A stretch of 64,000 nucleotides of DNA, taken from contig CAYHTW010000002.1 in the NCBI GenBank assembly GCA_964360065.1, forward strand, positions 2,251 to 66,250. The letters run 5' to 3'. The stretch is from an uncultured Candidatus Saccharibacteria bacterium. Lineage in GTDB: Bacteria > Patescibacteriota > Minisyncoccia > UBA6257 > Colwellbacteraceae. Positions 32,119 to 40,761 of the stretch are shown piece after piece. The position numbers and the translations under genes were made by a program. The notes below the pieces were generated by a model. It did no database searches. It had not been told where the DNA came from and was given only the letters and a program-made list of their open reading frames with translations. How positions within the stretch are numbered: position 1 is the stretch's first letter; the number at the start of each line of letters is the position of its first letter.

Positions 32119-33354
32119 TTATAATGGCAACCCGAGGAGCTTCATTGCTTCTTTAAGACCGTTGAAAGAAGTGCTAACGACAAGATAATTATTGAACCGG
32201 GCGTAATTAAAAGAGGCTCCTATGGTGGAATAATTAATATATCTGGCCTTAGCGTCGCCAATGGTTATACCGTCCTTGAAAACTCCTATAGCTGCTCCAG
32301 GAGAAGTTAAGAATAAATTAGGCAAGTTGTCGGAAGACTCTATACTTTTTATGTCGGCAGAGACGGTAGCGGGGTTTGCCGAATCGTTTAGTTTAAAGAT
32401 ATAACCCGGCCTAGAACCATTAGCATCTTTGTAAACGAAAGCGGTCATGTCTCTATCGAAGGCGGTCAAAATTGTCGTTGGGTTCAGTTCCGGGAAGGCA
32501 ATAGCCATAAAAGCTGTGGCATCAACCGGAGAATTATTTACATTAAGGTTGATTTCGGTGAGAGTCTTGGGTTGAGCACCGAAAACAGCCGCAGTAAAAG
32601 CCGTTTGGATTTCGCCGAGAGTTAAAGTGGTCAGATTAACTGTGGAAGTAGAGGTCGGGGCAGTAATGAAAAAGGTTTGATGAGTTAACTGGGTGACTAC
32701 GGGGGGGGTGTTAGTGGTTGCTGAGGTTTGATCTCCGGTAGTATCAGTTGTGACGGAAACGGGGGTATTATTTCCCACTGGGAAAATAAGAGGCATGATA
32801 AAGAAGTAAATAACGAGTCCTGCTATAACAACAAGCGCGGCTGAAGCAGCTACTATAAGTAACGAACTTGGGCTATGTGCTGGTAGAACTACTTTAGTAG
32901 TGGCTCCTGGTGCCGAAGTGACCGCAGAAGGGTTGAAAACTGGCGCCTTAGAAAAATCAGCAGGCTGGAAAGTAGTTGGTTTAGTCTCAAGTCCTCCAGT
33001 TGATTTCAGAGAGGAAAGGTCGCTGGCCATAGTTCTGATGCCAATATCTGGAGCTGGAGGTGGAGGAACCGGAGAAGAGGTCCTGGCGGAAAAATTAGGA
33101 GGCGTAGTAAAAGAAACGGGGGGAGCCATAGGTGGACCCTGTTGGATCGGGGTAGTAGGTGTTACCGGAGAAATTGGTTTTGGCGCTATTGGAGATATTG
33201 GTGGGGCTACCGGCGGAGGTGGCGGTGGCGGTGGAGGAGGAGGCGGCGGTACTGGAGAACTATCAGGTATTCCAGCTGGCGGAACCGGCGGTTTATATTC
33301 GTTGTTGTCCGGCAAAGGAGCCGGACCTTGTAAGTTGTCTTGGTTACCGTTCAT
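32119..33354 (-). CDS. Proline-rich membrane-anchored protein (13-residue polyPro tract, single TM)
   Basis: Low-complexity Pro/Thr-rich N-terminal half, a TM helix, and a folded C-terminal domain. Confidence 0.5.
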   Translation of the reverse strand: MNGNQDNLQGPAPLPDNNEYKPPVPPAGIPDSSPVPPPPPPPPPPPPPVAPPISPIAPKPISPVTPTTPIQQGPPMAPPVSFTTPPNFSARTSSPVPPPPAPDIGIRTMASDLSSLKSTGGLETKPTTFQPADFSKAPVFNPSAVTSAPGATTKVVLPAHSPSSLLIVAASAALVVIAGLVIYFFIMPLIFPVGNNTPVSVTTDTTGDQTSATTNTPPVVTQLTHQTFFITAPTSTSTVNLTTLTLGEIQTAFTAAVFGAQPKTLTEINLNVNNSPVDATAFMAIAFPELNPTTILTAFDRDMTAFVYKDANGSRPGYIFKLNDSANPATVSADIKSIESSDNLPNLFLTSPGAAIGVFKDGITIGDAKARYINYSTIGASFNYARFNNYLVVSTSFNGLKEAMKLLGLPL

Positions 33355-33417: not shown

Positions 33418-35514
33418 CTATTTATTAAGCTGCTTTAAAGAAAGGCCTATCTTACCTTTTTCGGTTTTAATGACTTTGGCCCTAACTATTTCGCCGAGTT
33501 TCACTACATCAGACACTTTTTCCACGAAACCGTCTTTGAGTTCAGAAACATGAATCATTCCGTCCCGGCCTCCTCCTAAATCAACAATGGCTCCAAAATC
33601 CAACATTTTTATAATCGCCCCCTCTACAATTTCTCCAATCTCAAACTCTTTAACGATGTTTTTAACTTCTGCCATGGCCGCCTCCGCTGATTCTTTGGAA
33701 CCGGCAACATAAACCAAGCCGGCCTGCTCTATATCAATACTAATGGCTCCGGTACGTGCAATAATACCGTTGATCATTTTCCCTCCAGGACCGATGACTT
33801 CTCCGATCTTTTCCGGATCAATGGTAATAGTAAGAACACGCGGGGCATATTCTGAAAGTTCCGATTTGGGAGTTTTAATAACGCCGTCAATAAAATCCAA
33901 AATATGGAGCCTGGCTTGTTTAGCCTGTTGAAGCGATTTCTCCAAAATTTCAAAACTCACTCCGTCAATCTTTACGTCCATTTGAATAGCGTTAACACCA
34001 TCCCGTGTGCCAGCTACTTTAAGATCCATATCTCCATAATGATCTTCCGGTCCTTGAATGTCGGTTAAAACTTTATATTTACCGGCTTCGCCTGTCATCA
34101 AGCCCATAGCGATACCAGCCGCAGACTTTTTGACCGGGACTCCTGCATCCATCAAGGCCATAACAGAGGCGCAGACGGTAGCCATAGAAGAGGAGCCGTT
34201 AGAAGAAAGGACTTCCGAAACAACTCTAATGGTGTAGGGGAAATCTTCTTTACTTGGGATTAAGGGGCGGACAGCTTTTTCGGCTAAGGCGCCATGACCA
34301 ATTTCACGCCTGCCCGGAGCTCCAACTCGGCCAGTTTCCCCTACAGAGTAAGGCGGGAAGTTGTAGTGAAGCATAAATCTTTTCTTGCCGGACTGCTCTA
34401 TGGTTTCAATAAGTTGCTCCGAGCCAGGAGCGGCAAGCGTCACAACTCCCAAAGCCTGCGTGTTTCCTCTTATAAACAGCGCCGAGCCATGAGCACGTGG
34501 AAGAAAGCTTATTTCTCCATAAAGCTCCCTGACCTCATCTAACTTCCTGCTATCGGGTCTCTTGTCTTCTTTTAATATTTTCTCGTGCACCATAGCGTCA
34601 ACCGCTTCTTCAAAAAGGTGATTAATGGCTGCTGAATCGGCTTCAACGACTCTGGATTCATTAAGATAAGCTTCCAAAGTTTCTTTAACTTCTGCAAGAT
34701 TAACTTCTCTTTCGGTTTTGTCTTTGACATAGATAGCTTTATCCAGTTTACCGGATAGAAAATCGCTAACAGTTTTTTTCAAATCCGCTGAAGGTTCTTT
34801 TAAATGGAAATCTGATTTTTTGCTGCCAACTTCTTTTTGGAACTTTTCCTGGAAATCAAGAATTTTATTTATTTCTTTTGAAGCGAGCTTGAAGGCTTCC
34901 ATAATATCGCCTTCTTTAGCGTCATCACCGCTAAGTTCAATCATATTGATTTTATCTCTGGATCCGGCTACGAAAGTTTCAAACTCAACTTTGCCTTTGG
35001 AGAGTTCGCTAAGCTTGGGATTAATAATAATTTTGCCGTCAATTTTAGCCACTTTAACTCCCCCCACCGGCCCTTTCCAGGGAATGTTAGAGCTCAAGAT
35101 GGCGGCTGAAGCAGTATTAAGAGCCACCAAATCTGGGTCGTGTTCTTCGTCAAATGACATGATGGTGACTACTATCTGTATATCTTTCCTTATTCTATTA
35201 TTAAATAAAGGGCGAATGGCGCGGTCCACGAGACGTCCCGAGAGAATCGCTTCATCTGATGGCCTACCCTCTCTTCTTAAGAAACGGCTGCCCAATATCT
35301 TACCAACAGCATAGAATCTCTCTTCGTAATCAACGCTTAGTGGCATGTAATCTATATCCCTGTCCTCTCCCCCCACTACAACGGTAGCTAGGACAGTTGT
35401 ATCTCCATACCTGCCGATAACGGCAGCATTGGCCTGCTCGGCAATTTTTGATACTTCCAGTTTTAGAATCTTGCCACCTACTTCAGTTTCAAAAGATTTT
35501 CTATGCAATTCCAT
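33418..35514 (-). CDS. pnp: Polyribonucleotide nucleotidyltransferase (PNPase)
   Basis: Two RNase PH domains, KH and S1 domains. Confidence 0.9.
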   Translation of the reverse strand: MELHRKSFETEVGGKILKLEVSKIAEQANAAVIGRYGDTTVLATVVVGGEDRDIDYMPLSVDYEERFYAVGKILGSRFLRREGRPSDEAILSGRLVDRAIRPLFNNRIRKDIQIVVTIMSFDEEHDPDLVALNTASAAILSSNIPWKGPVGGVKVAKIDGKIIINPKLSELSKGKVEFETFVAGSRDKINMIELSGDDAKEGDIMEAFKLASKEINKILDFQEKFQKEVGSKKSDFHLKEPSADLKKTVSDFLSGKLDKAIYVKDKTEREVNLAEVKETLEAYLNESRVVEADSAAINHLFEEAVDAMVHEKILKEDKRPDSRKLDEVRELYGEISFLPRAHGSALFIRGNTQALGVVTLAAPGSEQLIETIEQSGKKRFMLHYNFPPYSVGETGRVGAPGRREIGHGALAEKAVRPLIPSKEDFPYTIRVVSEVLSSNGSSSMATVCASVMALMDAGVPVKKSAAGIAMGLMTGEAGKYKVLTDIQGPEDHYGDMDLKVAGTRDGVNAIQMDVKIDGVSFEILEKSLQQAKQARLHILDFIDGVIKTPKSELSEYAPRVLTITIDPEKIGEVIGPGGKMINGIIARTGAISIDIEQAGLVYVAGSKESAEAAMAEVKNIVKEFEIGEIVEGAIIKMLDFGAIVDLGGGRDGMIHVSELKDGFVEKVSDVVKLGEIVRAKVIKTEKGKIGLSLKQLNK

Positions 35515-35524
35515 CTATTTAAAT

Positions 35525-36058
35525 TTATTGCTTCTTCGCTTTCTTAAAAACTTTAAAAACAACTCCCGGGGTTTTACCTAAATCTATAAAAGAATCCGCA
35601 GTGTCTTCCAACTTGGAGGAAGCGGTCCTATCAAAAGCGGCTACTTCCACGGTCCTGCCCAGCCCCCACTTTAAATATTCGACTAAAGGGATAAAATCCC
35701 CGTCACCGCTTACTATAATAACTACATCTACTAAGCTCGCCATTCTGATAGCGTCAACGGCGAGCCCCACATCCCAATCGGCTTTTTTCATGCCATCCGG
35801 GAAAATCTGGATGTCTTTAATACGAAGTTCTATACCGGCCTTGTTTAGAGCATCAAAAAAAGCGCCCTCACCTGTAGCGGGATCGCTTTTAACAACATAA
35901 CCAAGAGCCCGAACAAGACGTCTGCCGTTAACGAGACGTTTTAAGAGATTATCAAAATTGACACGTCCGCCATATAAATTCTTGGCGGAATGATAAAGGT
36001 TCTGGATATCAATGAAGACTCCAACTCGCTGTTCCTTATTGGCTTGCACTACAGACAT
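35525..36058 (-). CDS. NYN/LabA-like (PIN-fold) putative RNase, translationally coupled to rpsO
   Basis: VGVFIDIQNLYH ... VVIIVSGDGDF acidic-residue pattern of NYN domains; the ATG overlaps the rpsO stop (TAATG). Confidence 0.65.
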   Translation of the reverse strand: MSVVQANKEQRVGVFIDIQNLYHSAKNLYGGRVNFDNLLKRLVNGRRLVRALGYVVKSDPATGEGAFFDALNKAGIELRIKDIQIFPDGMKKADWDVGLAVDAIRMASLVDVVIIVSGDGDFIPLVEYLKWGLGRTVEVAAFDRTASSKLEDTADSFIDLGKTPGVVFKVFKKAKKQ

Positions 36059-36324
36059 TATCTCTTAAGGCCAAGCTTTTTGATAAGCTTAGCGTAACCC
36101 TCCAAAGAATTAATAGAGAGGTACTGCAAAAGCTTCCTTCTCTTGGCAACCATACCTAGTAAACCTTTTCTAGAGTGATTATCCTTGGGGTTTTTCTTTA
36201 AATGAGAGGCTAACTTTTCCATTTCCTTACTGATAACGGCTACCTGTACTTCCGCGGATCCAGTGTCTTTATCGTGAGCTTGATGCTCGTCAATTACCTT
36301 TTTCTTTTGTTTAGTAGTTAACAT
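36058..36324 (-). CDS. rpsO: 30S ribosomal protein S15
   Basis: Canonical bS15 sequence, 88 aa. Confidence 0.9.
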   Translation of the reverse strand: MLTTKQKKKVIDEHQAHDKDTGSAEVQVAVISKEMEKLASHLKKNPKDNHSRKGLLGMVAKRRKLLQYLSINSLEGYAKLIKKLGLKR

Positions 36325-36458
36325 ATTTCACCCAATTTAGCAGGTTTGGCTTGATTTGTAAAGGCTGACCGGCTCGTTTTTAGTGTCGCAAAATATTCCT
36401 TGTTACAACTTGAATAGATTCAAATCGTAAAAGGACAAAATATTATGCAACAGTATAT

Positions 36459-37382
36459 GTGTCGCATAATATTTTGATGTATAATCTAAGCATGGATTTA
36501 CAAAAAACCGTAAAGGACTATCTAGACTATCTGGAGGTGGAGAAAAACCGCTCTCCTCTGACGCGTAAGTCCTACGAAAGATGTCTTAGAAAGTTCCTCC
36601 TTATTACGGGAGCCAAAAAGATTAGCGACGTGACCGAAGAAAGCATCAGAGAGTTCAGAGTTAAGCTTGCCGACATGCCCGGCATTAAGAAAGGAACGCA
36701 GGCCTACCACATAATAGTCATAAGAAACTTCCTGAAATATTTGGCTAAGCGCGGGATTGCCTCTGTTTCCGCCGACAAGATTGAGTTGCCTAAGGTACCG
36801 CAACGGCAGATAAGTGTTCTGGAATATGCTGATTTAGAAAGACTCCTTGCAGCACCTAAGGGCAATGATTTAAAGAGTTTGAGAGATAGGGCAATACTGG
36901 AGACATTTTTTTCCACGGGCCTCCGTATTTCCGAGCTATGTTCTATGGACCGATTTACTAATTTTGACAGAGGTGAGCTCACTATAAGAGGCAAGGGTGA
37001 AAAATTACGTACAGTATTCCTATCCGAACGAGCTAAAAAGACAATTAAAGAATATTTAGACAAGCGAACTGACACAGACCAGGCGCTTTTCATCAGCATT
37101 TCTAAAGGGAAAAGCCCTAAAGTTCTGGGGCGTATTATCCCCCGCACTATTCAAAGAATGGTGGATTATTACGGCCGGGCAGCCGGCATTCCAAATAGGA
37201 TTACCCCACATAAGTTGCGCCACCAATTCGCAACCGACTTATTAATGAATGGAGCGGACTTAAGAAGTGTGCAGGAACTTTTAGGCCACGCCAATATCAC
37301 CACTACCCAGATTTATACCCACGTTACAAACAAAGAACTCCACGAAGTCCACGACGCCTTCCACGGACGGAGGAGGAAGTAA
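36459..37382 (+). CDS. Tyrosine site-specific recombinase XerC/XerD family
   Basis: R...HKLRHQFAT...LGHANITTTQIYTHV catalytic motifs. Confidence 0.85.
   Translation: MSHNILMYNLSMDLQKTVKDYLDYLEVEKNRSPLTRKSYERCLRKFLLITGAKKISDVTEESIREFRVKLADMPGIKKGTQAYHIIVIRNFLKYLAKRGIASVSADKIELPKVPQRQISVLEYADLERLLAAPKGNDLKSLRDRAILETFFSTGLRISELCSMDRFTNFDRGELTIRGKGEKLRTVFLSERAKKTIKEYLDKRTDTDQALFISISKGKSPKVLGRIIPRTIQRMVDYYGRAAGIPNRITPHKLRHQFATDLLMNGADLRSVQELLGHANITTTQIYTHVTNKELHEVHDAFHGRRRK
37308..37382. repeat. Direct repeat copy 1 (3' terminal 75 nt of the recombinase gene)
   Basis: 50/50 identical and then 19/25 identical to 38137-38211; every difference is synonymous in the recombinase frame. Confidence 0.8.
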
Positions 37383-37438
37383 CTATCCACAAGCCTTTGA
37401 CATGATATGACTTCTGTCTTAAACTAACACAGAAGTCA

Positions 37439-37473
37439 CCTGCGCCCGCCGAAAGGCTGTGTGCAGGTTTTTT
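37439..37473 (+). terminator. Probable rho-independent terminator after the recombinase gene (GC stem plus T6)
   Basis: cctgc...gcagg stem followed by tttttt. Confidence 0.4.
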
Positions 37474-37511
37474 ATTTACAAACGAATAAATAGGCCATAG
37501 AATCTCCATAT

Positions 37512-38357
37512 ATGGAGACCGAACGCGTTTGTATATTTATAGATGGCGGGAATTTTTATCATCTTGCGTTACAAAGACTTGGATTGCATGAAGTAGATTT
37601 TGATTTTGATAAATTCGCCACGTTTCTAGCTAATGGGAGGACTATAGCTAAAGAAGGAAAAAGATTTTATATAGGGACTGTAAGAGAGATACATGATGGG
37701 CACGAAAATAAACAGGCGATGATGCACCAAACAGCTCTTTTCCGTGAATTAATAGAGAAGGGTAATTGGGGAATTAAAACGAGTAAGCTAAGAACTAGAT
37801 TAGAGAGAATTAAAATTGATGATAGGTTTATAGATTATCAAAAACTACTTAAGGCTGGCTTTAAGGAAGTTGCTTATACTAGATCTAGAGAAAAAGGCAT
37901 TGATGTCAAAATGGCTACTGATATAATTGTTGGCGCAATAGATAAGAAATATGACACAGCTATCGTAGTTAGTTCAGATACAGATATTATACCAGCAATA
38001 GATTGGGTACGGATGAGGCTACATAAAAAAGTAGAATACGTTGGATTCTCTATGCCAGAAACCAAAACAAAAGAGGCTATTAAGCCTACAAAGACCATGA
38101 TTTATAAAACCGATGTACAGAGGGTTCTAATTGACTCAGATTTATACCCACGTTACAAACAAAGAACTCCACGAAGTCCACGACGCTTTCCACGGCAGAA
38201 GGAGAAAGTAATTTATTTTCTAGAAAGTTTGGCGCGCGCCAGCTCCATAGCTACCAACCGGGGATTCTTTTTCTCGGCAACTGATTTTCGAAGCACTGCC
38301 TGGGTGGTTTTCTTGATTTTTTTCTCCACTAAATCAAGCATCCGTTTCGGATTGTAA
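37512..38357 (+). CDS. NYN-domain (PIN-like) protein; the ORF reads through the downstream repeat copy, so the last ~70 aa are probably non-native
   Basis: CIFIDGGNFYH, KGIDVKMATD and VSSDTDIIPA motifs. The C-terminal tail is encoded by the duplicated recombinase 3' end and by gdh antisense sequence. Confidence 0.6.
   Translation: METERVCIFIDGGNFYHLALQRLGLHEVDFDFDKFATFLANGRTIAKEGKRFYIGTVREIHDGHENKQAMMHQTALFRELIEKGNWGIKTSKLRTRLERIKIDDRFIDYQKLLKAGFKEVAYTRSREKGIDVKMATDIIVGAIDKKYDTAIVVSSDTDIIPAIDWVRMRLHKKVEYVGFSMPETKTKEAIKPTKTMIYKTDVQRVLIDSDLYPRYKQRTPRSPRRFPRQKEKVIYFLESLARASSIATNRGFFFSATDFRSTAWVVFLIFFSTKSSIRFGL
38137..38211. repeat. Direct repeat copy 2 (displaced duplicate of recombinase 3' end, still ending in TAA)
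   Basis: See copy 1. Confidence 0.8.
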
Positions 38358-39358
38358 CCGCGGTGTTCGGCATAGGATGAGATGACTCCACCGGCGTTAG
38401 CTATCATGTCCGGCACTATCATAATTCCTTTCTGCCAGAGCCAATGCTCCACGTTTTCCCGCATAGGGATATTGGCTCCCTCAACTATGATTTTCGCTTT
38501 AATACTGCTTTTGTTTTTGTCGTTAATGACATCTGTAACAGAAGCTGGAATCAAAATATCAACCTTCAGACCGAAAATAGCATCACGGCTTATTTTTTTG
38601 CCAGGCTTGTAGTCAGCTACAGACTTTCTCTCTTTTTTGAGTCCCATCAGTTTTTTGTAATCCAAACCGTCGGCGTTATAGACACCGCCACGGCTGTCAG
38701 CCACTGCCACAATTTTCGCTCCAATCTCTGCCAAATACTTGAAAGCAAAAGTTCCCACATTACCAAAGCCCTCTATGGCCACCGTAGCTCCTTTAATATT
38801 GAGCCCGTAAACTTCGGCGGCTACTGCCGTAGCTTGGGCTACGCCAAAACCCGTGCTGCCAAACTCATGCGGGATGCCGCATCGTTCCCCCTTTTTGCCG
38901 AAAATTTTCATACATAGGTCTGCCGGCTTGCCAGTAGCGGAATGCCAATTGCCGGTTGCCTCCACAAACCATTTCATTTCTCGCTCTCCTGTATTAACAT
39001 CGGGACCCGCGATATACATTTTAGGAGTCAGAGGTTTTATGGCCCGGGCAAAGCTTTGTATGTATTCTTTCTTTAACTCTTCCGAGCCGCCTGACCAAAC
39101 TATTCCAGCTTTAGCCCCGCCGAAAGGAATGTCGGCTAAAGCATTTTTAAAAGTCATGGTTCTCGCTAAACGAGCCACTTCGGTTTCTGTAACATCGGGT
39201 GTCATGCGAATACCGCCCTTACCTACACCCAAAGTCGTGTTATCAATAACCAAAAATCCACGCATACCGAGCAAAGGATCATAAACCTTAACGACTACTT
39301 CGGGACCAATTTTATCTTCGCCAGTTTTATTTTTTGTTTTAATTTGCTCCTGTTTCAT
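38213..39358 (-). CDS. Glu/Leu/Phe/Val dehydrogenase family (short form)
   Basis: KGGIRMTPD...GGAKAGI and GFGNVG Rossmann motifs. Confidence 0.8.
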   Translation of the reverse strand: MKQEQIKTKNKTGEDKIGPEVVVKVYDPLLGMRGFLVIDNTTLGVGKGGIRMTPDVTETEVARLARTMTFKNALADIPFGGAKAGIVWSGGSEELKKEYIQSFARAIKPLTPKMYIAGPDVNTGEREMKWFVEATGNWHSATGKPADLCMKIFGKKGERCGIPHEFGSTGFGVAQATAVAAEVYGLNIKGATVAIEGFGNVGTFAFKYLAEIGAKIVAVADSRGGVYNADGLDYKKLMGLKKERKSVADYKPGKKISRDAIFGLKVDILIPASVTDVINDKNKSSIKAKIIVEGANIPMRENVEHWLWQKGIMIVPDMIANAGGVISSYAEHRGYNPKRMLDLVEKKIKKTTQAVLRKSVAEKKNPRLVAMELARAKLSRK

Positions 39359-39365
39359 TTTTTTG

Positions 39366-39447
39366 TGCCCCCGAGAGGATTTGAACCTCTAACCCTTGCA
39401 GGACGTGCTCCTAAGGCACGCGCGTATGCCAATTCCGCCACGGGGGC
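39366..39447 (-). tRNA. tRNA-Leu (anticodon TAG), long variable arm
   Basis: 82 nt, anticodon loop ctTAGga, T-loop ggttcaaatcc. Confidence 0.8.
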
Positions 39448-39629
39448 AGTTATATAGATAAATACTAGTATAACTTGACTATTTATTCAAAATATGGTAT
39501 TAATTAAGGAATGGAGAGGGAGTGAAAATAACCCGCCAGCTGGCGAACTATTCCCCTTCTTCTTCGCTAGCCACAATAAAAACCCGTCTTACAAAAAACG
39601 GGTTTTTAAATTGCGCATTAAAGCACTTA

Positions 39630-39983
39630 CTACGCTCCTGGGAAAAGCCCTTTAACTACTATAGGTATGGCCTTAGCGATAAGAGCCACAAAGATGGCAA
39701 TAATAGCGTAGAGCATGTAGTGCTTGGCTTTAGTCAAGTTGTCTTCTATGGCGCCGGCAGTCAGGTACATATAGGCCGCCCAAAGGATAAAGATGGCAGC
39801 TAGCGCAACTAAAAGGGCGACTCCGAAGTTCATGATATTCTCAATTATCCTGGGAATATCTATGCTATTGGTGGTGTTGACTGGTGGAAGATTGCCTGGC
39901 AGTGCCTGAGCATAAACGGTGGCTGCCTGTGAAGCAAAGAGTAGGGCAGTGGAAACTATTTTTGAATTAAATTTATTTATCAT
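39630..39983 (-). CDS. VirB2/TrbC-like mini-pilin (signal peptide plus two hydrophobic helices), paralog 1
   Basis: Signal peptide ending AQA, then two TM helices separated by a short charged loop. Confidence 0.45.
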   Translation of the reverse strand: MINKFNSKIVSTALLFASQAATVYAQALPGNLPPVNTTNSIDIPRIIENIMNFGVALLVALAAIFILWAAYMYLTAGAIEDNLTKAKHYMLYAIIAIFVALIAKAIPIVVKGLFPGA

Positions 39984-40044
39984 ATTTTAGTGCTAAACTT
40001 CGACCTTTTTGTTTTTAATAAGATACCATAAAGGCCATTATTTG

Positions 40045-40431
40045 TTAAGTGAGGGGGGCGGGACAGAAACCGATATCACCAGCTCCCAATAGTCCGGTGA
40101 TAAGAACGACTAATCCTTTAGCGAGCAGAATTATCGCTAATCCTATTACAGTGTAAAGAATGGTGTTCTTCCCGGCTTCAAATCTTTGAGGACTCTCGGC
40201 GGCTGTCAGTATCAGGAAAGCGCCATAGAGTATCATTAAGCCTGCTATAGGAATAGAAACGGCTATTATGAAGTCTGTAACACTATAGATAATAGGGCAG
40301 ATGTCCTGGGGCAATAGCGTCCCGTCGGGTAATCTAGGAGGTTGGATGCTTAAACCACCACCGGAAGAATTTGAGCCGCTATCTCCCGGAAAAACAGTAT
40401 CGGCTAAAACTTTTTGTATTAAAAAATTCAT
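40045..40431 (-). CDS. VirB2/TrbC-like mini-pilin paralog 2
   Basis: Shared motif ILYGAFLILTAAESPQRFEAGKNTILYTVIGLAI with the neighbouring genes. Confidence 0.4.
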   Translation of the reverse strand: MNFLIQKVLADTVFPGDSGSNSSGGGLSIQPPRLPDGTLLPQDICPIIYSVTDFIIAVSIPIAGLMILYGAFLILTAAESPQRFEAGKNTILYTVIGLAIILLAKGLVVLITGLLGAGDIGFCPAPLT

Positions 40432-40434
40432 AAT

Positions 40435-40761
40435 TTATCCCGATAAAGCCCTGGTCACCAATGTTACTAGAATGTATGACCCGAAGACTATAAATAAACC
40501 TATCACAGCTCCTATAATAGCATCTTTACCTTTTTCGTACCTACTTTCTGAACCGCCTGAAGTGAGTATGGTGAAACCTCCGTAGAGAATAACGAGAACC
40601 GCTAAGGGAATGGCGCCATAAAGCAATAAAGTCATTAAATTAGTAATCGTCTGAGACAATTCGGGCCAGCCGTAACCGCCGCTTGGGGATTGCGGCACTA
40701 TAGGAAAAATCGTTAACAAAATCCCTTTAAACTTATCTCTACTTGTGTCTACTTTTATCAT
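40435..40761 (-). CDS. VirB2/TrbC-like mini-pilin paralog 3
   Basis: ILYGGFTILTSGGSESRYEKGKDAIIGAVIGLFI, the same architecture. Confidence 0.4.
   Translation of the reverse strand: MIKVDTSRDKFKGILLTIFPIVPQSPSGGYGWPELSQTITNLMTLLLYGAIPLAVLVILYGGFTILTSGGSESRYEKGKDAIIGAVIGLFIVFGSYILVTLVTRALSG

Follow-up and report, generated by a model that had tools for sequence, protein, structure and literature searches.

Phage 21 and the e14 element (icd) and tRNA-targeting genomic islands integrate at the 3' end of a gene and bring a replacement end with them. Such elements carry their own integrase and a fixed attP, use a constant target and have precise ends. Here we describe a locus that resembles them in part, which is located in a 64,000-nt stretch of contig CAYHTW010000002.1 (hereafter, the window) from a groundwater Paceibacteria-type Patescibacterium. 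In the window, a small module consisting of a predicted hairpin RNA and a NYN-domain nuclease gene is inserted at the 3' end, within the last 25 codons, of a chromosomal xerC-like tyrosine recombinase gene, just before the convergent glutamate dehydrogenase gene (gdh). As in phage 21, e14 and the tRNA islands, the 3' end of the target gene is duplicated around the insert, the gene is intact, and the two copies of the gene end differ mainly at silent positions. Unlike in those elements, the insert has no integrase, the family to which it belongs is found at unrelated sites, and one end of the insert truncates its cargo. The best explanation, which we hold with moderate confidence, is that a mobile RNA and NYN module, with a putative function as an RNA-controlled RNase, was inserted in the xerC tail by homology-assisted illegitimate recombination.

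The closest described processes of this kind are homology-facilitated illegitimate recombination (HFIR) and insertion-duplication in transformable bacteria (de Vries & Wackernagel 2002; Prudhomme et al. 2002; both as outlined in PMC3240628), which have in common with the route proposed for this locus homology at one junction and a microhomology of a few bp at the other. According to PMC3240628, HFIR joints carry 3-10 bp of microhomology, and the homologous segment becomes duplicated if a molecule that has been degraded and re-circularised is integrated through a single crossover. Insertion by one-sided homology, which displaces resident gene ends, was also proposed for the "sequential displacement" arrays of type VI secretion system (T6SS) effector-immunity loci and Rhs loci (PMC5361080). 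HFIR and the T6SS/Rhs process share with the route proposed here an incoming copy of a gene end, a resident end that is orphaned downstream, the lack of an element recombinase, and arrays formed by repetition.

The features of the insertion site in the window are as follows.

36477-37382, forward strand: xerC-like tyrosine recombinase gene encoding 301 aa, intact, the target of the insertion (Pfam Phage_integrase and SAM-like N domain).
37308-37382, forward strand: DR1, the proximal copy of the direct repeat (DR), comprising the last 24 codons and the stop codon of xerC; functional gene end.
37512-38357, forward strand: NYN-domain open reading frame (ORF; Pfam NYN), 281 aa as read now, in which only the part from 37512 to about 38144 is NYN-derived.
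38137-38144, forward strand: junction at which the NYN 3' end meets the beginning of the duplicated xerC segment, in the microhomology CAGAT(TTA); xerC reads CCCAGATTTAT.
38137-38211, forward strand: DR2, the displaced distal copy of the xerC 3' end, joining the ancestral xerC/gdh junction.
38213-39358, reverse strand: gdh, in convergent orientation to xerC; it formed the right flank when the site was still empty, in the ancestral state.

The 75-nt direct repeat described in the original prediction, which was based on the sequence of the window, was confirmed by repeat search and alignment. DR1 recurs as DR2 at a spacing of 829 nt with 93% identity (E ~5e-28 for the search space used), and nucleotides 1-50 of the two copies show no difference. 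The final 25 nt carry five mismatches, at 37358, 37367, 37368, 37370 and 37376 in DR1 numbering, rather than the six that had been counted there; the sixth (37307 C / 38136 T) lies one codon 5' of the repeat, and the T at 38136 is more likely to be derived from NYN (GAC TCA GAT). The claim that all differences are silent in the xerC frame survived careful realignment, and both copies translate to QIYTHVTNKELHEVHDAFHGRRRK followed by a stop codon. The repeat search found no further repeat of similar size in 35000-40500. Five random substitutions would all be synonymous by chance with p ~5-9 x 10^-4, and the mismatches are clustered (0/50 vs 5/25; Fisher p = 0.003). The silent-only and clustered pattern favours, as judged from the alignment, both copies having once served as a functional xerC end, in line with the proposal that both had been selected as a coding 3' end. 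When the changes were polarised with a close relative as outgroup, three were placed on DR1 and two on DR2, the displaced copy. Just the DR2 changes are informative by themselves; both are silent, for which p is only ~0.08 when taken alone.

Repeats can give rise to chimeric joins in metagenome assemblies, and contig L008 begins inside DR2. The stretch from DR1 through the insert and DR2 to gdh is spanned with 0 mismatches by contigs of at least four independent Hainich H52 groundwater assemblies, which represent different samples and assemblers. Because these assemblies reproduce the structure mismatch-free, an assembly artefact is excluded, and with the E value of the repeat taken into account we give practically no weight to an artefact or a chance repeat.

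A related genome in which the recombinase gene lacks the insert, as sought by the original prediction, was found. In the close relative DASRUQ010000012.1 (DASRUQ01, isolate SMAG_U8181), the stop codon of xerC directly abuts the 3' end of gdh, which represents the empty site; the amino acid identities between this relative and the window are 86% for polynucleotide phosphorylase (PNPase), 92% for gdh, 93% for ribosomal protein S15, and 100% for the xerC tail. Because xerC runs straight into gdh in this relative, the structure in the window is a genuine insertion, and because the flank after xerC in DASRUQ01 (TTTATTTT.TAGAAAGTTTG) is the same as the flank past DR2, DR2 is the original gene end, still in its ancestral surroundings. 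The gained DNA comprises 754 bp at 37383-38136 plus one copy of the repeat (75 bp), that is 829 bp. The duplicated gene end leaves xerC intact, since DR1 completes the gene. The GC content of the insert is 36%, compared with 44-46% in xerC and gdh, and the insert is foreign in composition and horizontally acquired. Exact look-ups of xerC, NYN and gdh in contigs of the same population revealed no contig with an empty site or with a circular-form junction of the insert, which would read NYN 3' end-DR-CTATCCACA; all of the contigs carry the insert.

The right end of the insert lies inside the NYN coding sequence. The NYN ORF scored 56 bits against the Pfam model (PF01936), for which the cut-off is 24.2 bits, and the invariant acidic residues of the family are D11, D131, D137, D156, and D158. 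Hundreds of homologues with 56-77% identity are present in Patescibacteria, and nearly all of them are 215-225 aa long and cover 75% of the ORF in the window. Homology within the family ends at ..QRVLIESD[IL]xPF, which is followed by 8-15 more residues; in the window, homology stops at VLIDSDLYP, and it is the first bases of DR2 that supply the last codons of this motif. The segment CAGATTTATACCCA can be read in two frames: in that of NYN it encodes (S)DLYP, and in that of xerC it encodes the catalytic-tyrosine motif QIYTH. The ORF in the window keeps SDLYP only because this segment of xerC happens to read so in the NYN frame. Compared with more than 100 homologues, ~12 native C-terminal codons are gone, and, as originally predicted, the ORF now continues past DR2, out of frame, into antisense gdh. 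Family members commonly carry ..TCAGAT[AT]T.. at the codon pair of the joint, and the stretch shared by family NYN 3' ends and xerC at the left edge of DR2 is CAGAT, up to CAGATTTA. Because the family sequence TCAGAT[AT]T matches the xerC sequence at the start of the repeat, the joint between NYN and DR2 lies in a microhomology of 5-8 nt. The window copy of NYN, being truncated at the C-terminus, may be inactive or decaying.

A confident AlphaFold model of the NYN protein (predicted local distance difference test score 89.6) had its best matches in PDB, as found by Foldseek, in VPA0982/LabA-like (2qip) and the NYN domain of MARF1. The latter domain is an RNase (endoribonuclease). Searches with the NYN protein yielded weak partial matches only in PADLOC, and generic NYN or unknown-function matches only in NCBIfam and PHROGs. 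At two other loci (L021 4001-5240 and L023 1180-2412; P0030 and P0024), the NYN ORF is in frame with a HAD-family hydrolase and forms an ORF of ~410 aa with it, which could be a natural fusion or else another insertion at the 5' end of a gene.

The presence of a tyrosine recombinase gene immediately adjacent to the insert had led to the proposal that the recombinase mobilises the cassette, or that its 3' end is exploited as an att site. A site-specific integrative cassette of this type, with the xerC 3' end as att and a replacement end of its own, would fit the direct repeats flanking the insert, the completion of the gene by the proximal copy, the silent differences, and the empty site in the relative. 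The recombinase matches NCBIfam models of the XerC/XerD/XerA type, scored 115 bits against the integron-integrase model (cut-off 265), and is embedded in a synteny of pnp-NYN2-rpsO / xerC that is conserved in 9/9 usable relatives, none of which carries the inserted gene downstream (0/9). It is a core Xer gene and a bystander to the insertion. We further collected 87 loci with homologues of the inserted NYN gene from metagenomes and genomes, and a tblastn search with the window recombinase found no tyrosine recombinase near any of these other loci. The insert itself contains the hairpin RNA and NYN only, and its right end is not fixed, as it lies at a microhomology within the coding part of NYN. 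Some variants of a ~29-nt junction motif found in arrays of cassettes (see below) have an 11-nt core, GTCCACGAYGC, in common with the xerC tail; because a profile search with this motif gave no match in the window at E <= 10, the resemblance is not significant and possibly due to chance. Taken with the unrelated flanking repeats at other sites, these observations leave the proposal unsupported, and we regard a site-specific cassette as improbable.

A second NYN gene in the window (35525-36058, reverse strand, 177 aa) is 27% identical to the inserted NYN and is a core gene, whose synteny with rpsO and pnp is kept in every Paceibacteria-type relative examined. GC skew gave no information on a replication terminus near xerC.

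The survey of NYN loci showed that duplications around the module are recurrent. In long contigs, the module is solitary among housekeeping genes, and its neighbours vary by genome (tyrosyl-tRNA synthetase/RNase J, S20/RuvA, and others). Flanking direct repeats of 24-87 nt were found at 14 of the 61 testable loci (23%), compared with 9/241 control ORFs of like size (3.7%; p = 9 x 10^-6). The repeats differ in sequence from site to site and have no common core, and both their length and their distance to the module vary, such that ~14 independent sites, with repeats of 24-87 nt or longer, are unrelated. They include non-coding sequence, the 3' terminus of a gene on the reverse strand, tRNA-adjacent DNA, and the promoter and first 26 codons of a hydrolase gene. 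At locus L057, the arrangement is a mirror image at the 5' end of a gene, where a truncated copy, diverged in frame, is present together with the intact gene. The repeats of the L037 group, considered as another duplication of a 5' gene end, may be just two paralogous zinc-ribbon genes and were not used as evidence. All nine control ORFs with flanking repeats were other accessory genes adjoining NYN modules, namely Fic/DOC, NUDIX, EamA, methyltransferase, and membrane protein genes, and because such neighbouring cassettes carry like repeats, the process that makes the duplications is not specific to NYN. Direct repeats of 28-92 nt also bracket accessory genes beside NYN modules at L022 (4255-5227), L035 (430-1580), L021, L060, and L093 (895-2072); at L022 and L035, the repeat consists of the promoter and first codons (MAxxKEK..) of a reverse-strand gene.

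Variable-length local duplications at many unrelated sites are what would be predicted if the module were inserted at staggered breaks, with the 75-nt target duplication identical at birth and the silent differences acquired later, either by drift and selection or through an allelic recombination tract. The identity of the first 50 nt of the repeat fits this account, and a tract that reached in from the gdh side and stopped within DR2 would bring in once-functional xerC sequence as a block, giving both the clustering and the silent-only pattern. The module encodes neither transposase nor integrase; a transposase domain and terminal inverted repeats, as expected of an insertion sequence or transposon, were both absent, and the duplication is 75 nt here and variable elsewhere. 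To our knowledge, no prokaryotic mechanism gives variable duplications of 24-115 nt. Drift alone predicts that most changes fall on the displaced copy and are mostly non-silent, whereas two on DR2 and three on DR1 were observed, all silent (joint p ~0.01), and the truncated copy at L057 bears an in-frame diverged patch that looks like an orthologue rather than decay. Identity at birth plus drift is therefore disfavoured at about the 1% level, and less so with a later allelic recombination tract ending in DR2. We consider target duplication, with either later history, an unlikely explanation, although likelier than the other alternatives to illegitimate recombination.

Free-standing homing endonuclease genes in fungal mitochondria replace gene 3' ends in a similar way. 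If the NYN protein were a mobility nuclease of this kind, repair of broken cassette-free alleles would copy the module together with the donor flank, and a foreign gene end would replace the resident one, with the original displaced and the far joint illegitimate, as seen here; in addition, the sole protein of the module has a nuclease fold, and flanking repeats are enriched around its gene. The insertion sites are, in contrast, unrelated in sequence, hence without the conserved target of known homing-endonuclease families, from which the NYN fold also sets the protein apart. Fic, NUDIX, EamA and methyltransferase cassettes nearby have the same type of repeat, the characterised member among the best matches, the MARF1 NYN domain, is an RNase, and the hairpin RNA has no guide-like variable segment. 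Homing appears very improbable on these grounds, even more so than a site-specific cassette.

Precise site-specific integration is disfavoured, and homology-assisted illegitimate recombination favoured, because the gene end is duplicated, the joint truncates the cargo at a microhomology, the insert has no recombinase, and neither its ends nor its target are conserved. What remains of the predicted integrative element with a replacement 3' end is the insertion, the foreign DNA, and the intact xerC, but not the precision of the integration. In the route that we infer, a donor fragment from a related strain would carry a xerC tail joined to the module, would close or join at the CAGAT/CAGATTTA microhomology inside the NYN 3' end, and would recombine through its xerC tail with the resident xerC tail by homology. 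This could occur by a single crossover of a re-circularised fragment with the xerC tail of a related strain, or by an HFIR-type event during DNA uptake. As the outcome, the proximal repeat copy would complete xerC, and the original gene end would be displaced distally. The joint in the window agrees with HFIR products in its one-sided microhomology within the range of 3-10 bp, and on the side of donor homology the silent, clustered differences fit two alleles. Classical HFIR gives insertion and deletion, not duplication as here; the duplication variant, a single crossover of a re-circularised fragment, is reported for plasmids in E. coli (PMC3240628). The homology at this locus would, unlike in HFIR, be short (75 nt plus the upstream part of xerC).

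Several points weigh against homology-assisted illegitimate recombination. A donor in which xerC is followed by the cassette was not found (0/10 xerC relatives, 0/87 NYN loci), and because of this the homology arm is a putative one. Donor and recipient alleles alone leave the 50 nt of identity beside 25 nt with 20% divergence unexplained, so that an extra gene conversion or recombination endpoint must be assumed. In a number of loci, the end of the flanking repeat coincides with a DnaA-box-like site or lies no more than 2 nt from it or inside it, which could indicate that the left terminus is defined and that the mechanism is more specific than random illegitimate joining. The proportion of repeat-flanked loci, 23%, is far above the expectation for a rare accident and is high for a process that is reported as rare (PMC5361080 and PMC3240628). 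As to function, toxicity, RNase activity, and the interaction of RNA and protein are all predicted, with PADLOC matches that are weak and partial and a window copy that may be inactive.

The left part of the insert contains the following features.

37384-37391, forward strand: DnaA-box-like TATCCACA, located 1 nt inside the insert at its left edge and 5 nt 5' of the -35 box.
37397-37425, forward strand: promoter-like site TTGACA-17-TAAACT for the hairpin RNA; most family loci have TTGAC[AT] at the corresponding place.
37421-37477, forward strand: conserved hairpin RNA, AAGUCACCUGCGCC-stem-loop-GUGUGCAGG and then a U-run, with the hairpin at 37438-37468.
37475-37503, forward strand: second promoter-like site TTTACA-17-TAGAAT, which ends 8 nt ahead of the NYN start codon.

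The insert had been described as carrying a terminator and a single cargo gene. A terminator-like hairpin is indeed present at 37438-37473, but it is a conserved RNA that is integral to a two-part module. The order 5' of NYN is family-wide and found in essentially every member: a TTGAC[AT] promoter, followed by GAAAGUCACCUGCGCC-[variable stem-loop]-GUGUGCAGG-U-run. Across 49 non-redundant copies, RNAalifold predicted a 12-bp hairpin in which six pairs show compensatory changes. A covariance model detected exactly one hairpin RNA per locus (L020-L106), always directly 5' of NYN, with a match of 59 bits in the window, and no hairpin RNA elsewhere in the window or in NYN-free relatives. The hairpin RNA had no match in Rfam; it is a single hairpin of ~45 nt, with no tandem repeats and no variable segment able to serve as a guide. 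DnaA-box-like sites (T[AT]TCCACA) were located 2-10 nt 5' of the first -35 box in 20/69 non-redundant family loci, compared with 0.3 expected, always in the same orientation and at -102 to -131 from the NYN start.

Past the hairpin, a -10 box follows after 15-16 nt in most loci (TGnTATAAT in about half of the loci), and it is located 6-8 nt ahead of the NYN start codon in 43/56 loci. A Shine-Dalgarno (SD)-like sequence precedes the NYN start in just 3/65 loci. Because the -10 box is so near to the start codon and SD-like sequences are so rare, the NYN mRNA is probably leaderless, and the hairpin RNA is probably a short transcript apart from it. The 3' arm of the hairpin occupies the expected -35 position of the leaderless NYN promoter. 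The module consists of two parts, the first comprising the DnaA-box-like site, a sigma-70-type promoter, and the ~45-nt hairpin RNA with its U-run, and the second, 15-30 nt past the hairpin, comprising a promoter and a probably leaderless NYN nuclease gene. The coupling of the structured small RNA to a NYN nuclease is undescribed, strictly conserved and present in hundreds of genomes of the candidate phyla radiation (CPR); the module is conserved across Patescibacteria at many different sites and is horizontally mobile. Searches of viral, phage, and plasmid collections found no copy of the module.

In some genomes, the NYN module is included in same-strand arrays of small single-gene units (L089 449-8013, L093 64-3685, and L062 3851-6815). 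The cargo of these arrays includes numerous small membrane proteins, a methyltransferase, Fic/DOC, and a HigBA-like pair. At the end of every unit stands a motif of ~29 nt (AGGTTCTAAC.TCGTCC...CGGAGC; aAaAGGTTCTAAcaTCGTCCA....CgGAGCc) that is followed by a terminator hairpin, and 13 copies of this motif are present in 8.6 kb of L089. The motif had no match in Rfam, and no recombinase was found in reach of the arrays. Three interpretations of the motif were tried and rejected: a coding remnant of a recombinase or other gene tail, as the reading frames are interrupted; the 3' end of a tRNA, as the T-arm does not fit; and a dif-like site, as the dyad symmetry is weak. It may be a recombination site, a 3'-untranslated-region element, or a repetitive extragenic palindrome (REP)-like element.

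Integron gene cassettes and Xer-dependent modules, such as integrative mobile elements exploiting Xer (IMEX) and the pdif modules of Acinetobacter plasmids, are known systems with comparable units. The likeness lies in single-gene units of 0.5-1 kb, in the arrays of L089, L093 and L062 with their motif and toxin-antitoxin (TA)-type cargo, and in the adjacent Xer gene in the window. Unlike in integron cassettes, an attC-like imperfect palindrome is absent, with no inverted repeat at the cassette end and the NYN ORF running straight into DR2. An IntI-type integrase, which in integrons lies with attI and Pc beside promoterless cassettes, is also absent; the cassettes here have their own promoters and terminators, including two family-conserved promoter-like sites in the NYN cassette. 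In contrast to pdif sites, which alternate in orientation, all copies of the array motif are direct, and the motif, besides its weak dyad, is absent from the window.

The layout of the module recalls another group of systems. In type III TA systems (ToxIN, CptIN, and TenpIN), the antitoxin consists of tandem repeats of 34-36 nt that are processed by the toxin, and the toxins have ToxN/AbiEii-type folds. The module resembles these systems, in layout and predicted fold only, by its promoter, structured non-coding RNA, terminator, and endoribonuclease gene, and also in being a small, mobile, self-contained unit among addiction and defence genes. Unlike type III systems, it has a single hairpin instead of a tandem-repeat antitoxin, a NYN fold instead of a ToxN, CptN or TenpN toxin, and a nuclease gene with an apparent leaderless promoter of its own. 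From its transfer as a unit, its location among TA and Fic cassettes, and its layout of promoter, structured RNA, terminator and nuclease, we infer that the module may act as an addiction- or defence-type ribonuclease under the control of the RNA.

Other genes were noted in the window and in the surveyed contigs. A tRNA-Leu(UAG) gene (39365-39447, reverse strand) is located immediately 5' of the gdh start, and beside it are three small ORFs with T4SS-pilin/TrbC-like Pfam matches (39630-40761, reverse strand; T4SS, type IV secretion system). A 411-aa protein encoded at 32119-33354 on the reverse strand is extremely rich in proline throughout its N-terminal half, where 14 prolines follow one another, and has no Pfam match on record. 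In another Patescibacterium (L100 18153-20675 and L101 18239-20675), gyrA holds an intein with a LAGLIDADG homing endonuclease, which in L100 was called as split genes.

In Patescibacteria, also known as CPR bacteria, genomes are tiny, recognised mobile elements are few, and experimental genetics is almost absent, and for these reasons the gain of accessory genes in them is poorly understood. The locus described here provides a clean pair of a filled and an empty site, in which a gene was gained by a duplicating, end-preserving insertion in an essential-type gene with no element-encoded recombinase. The idea of a Xer-type recombinase that uses the end of its own gene as an attachment site is attractive, and it is corrected here as unsupported. 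The survey of the family suggests that accessory cassettes of a whole class are repeatedly gained by this route. In a more far-reaching interpretation, which we offer tentatively and which is unlikely to hold, the module would be a recombinase-less mobile cassette of Patescibacteria that encodes an RNA-controlled RNase for addiction or defence (a new TA type) and spreads by systematic target duplication of 25-100 nt that spares the interrupted genes; the integron-like arrays with ~29-nt sites in some lineages would then possibly be serviced by the single host Xer or by DnaA-box-linked ends. The layout of a DnaA-box-like site, a hairpin RNA, and a leaderless nuclease gene makes the module testable as a new RNA-protein toxin-antitoxin or defence system.

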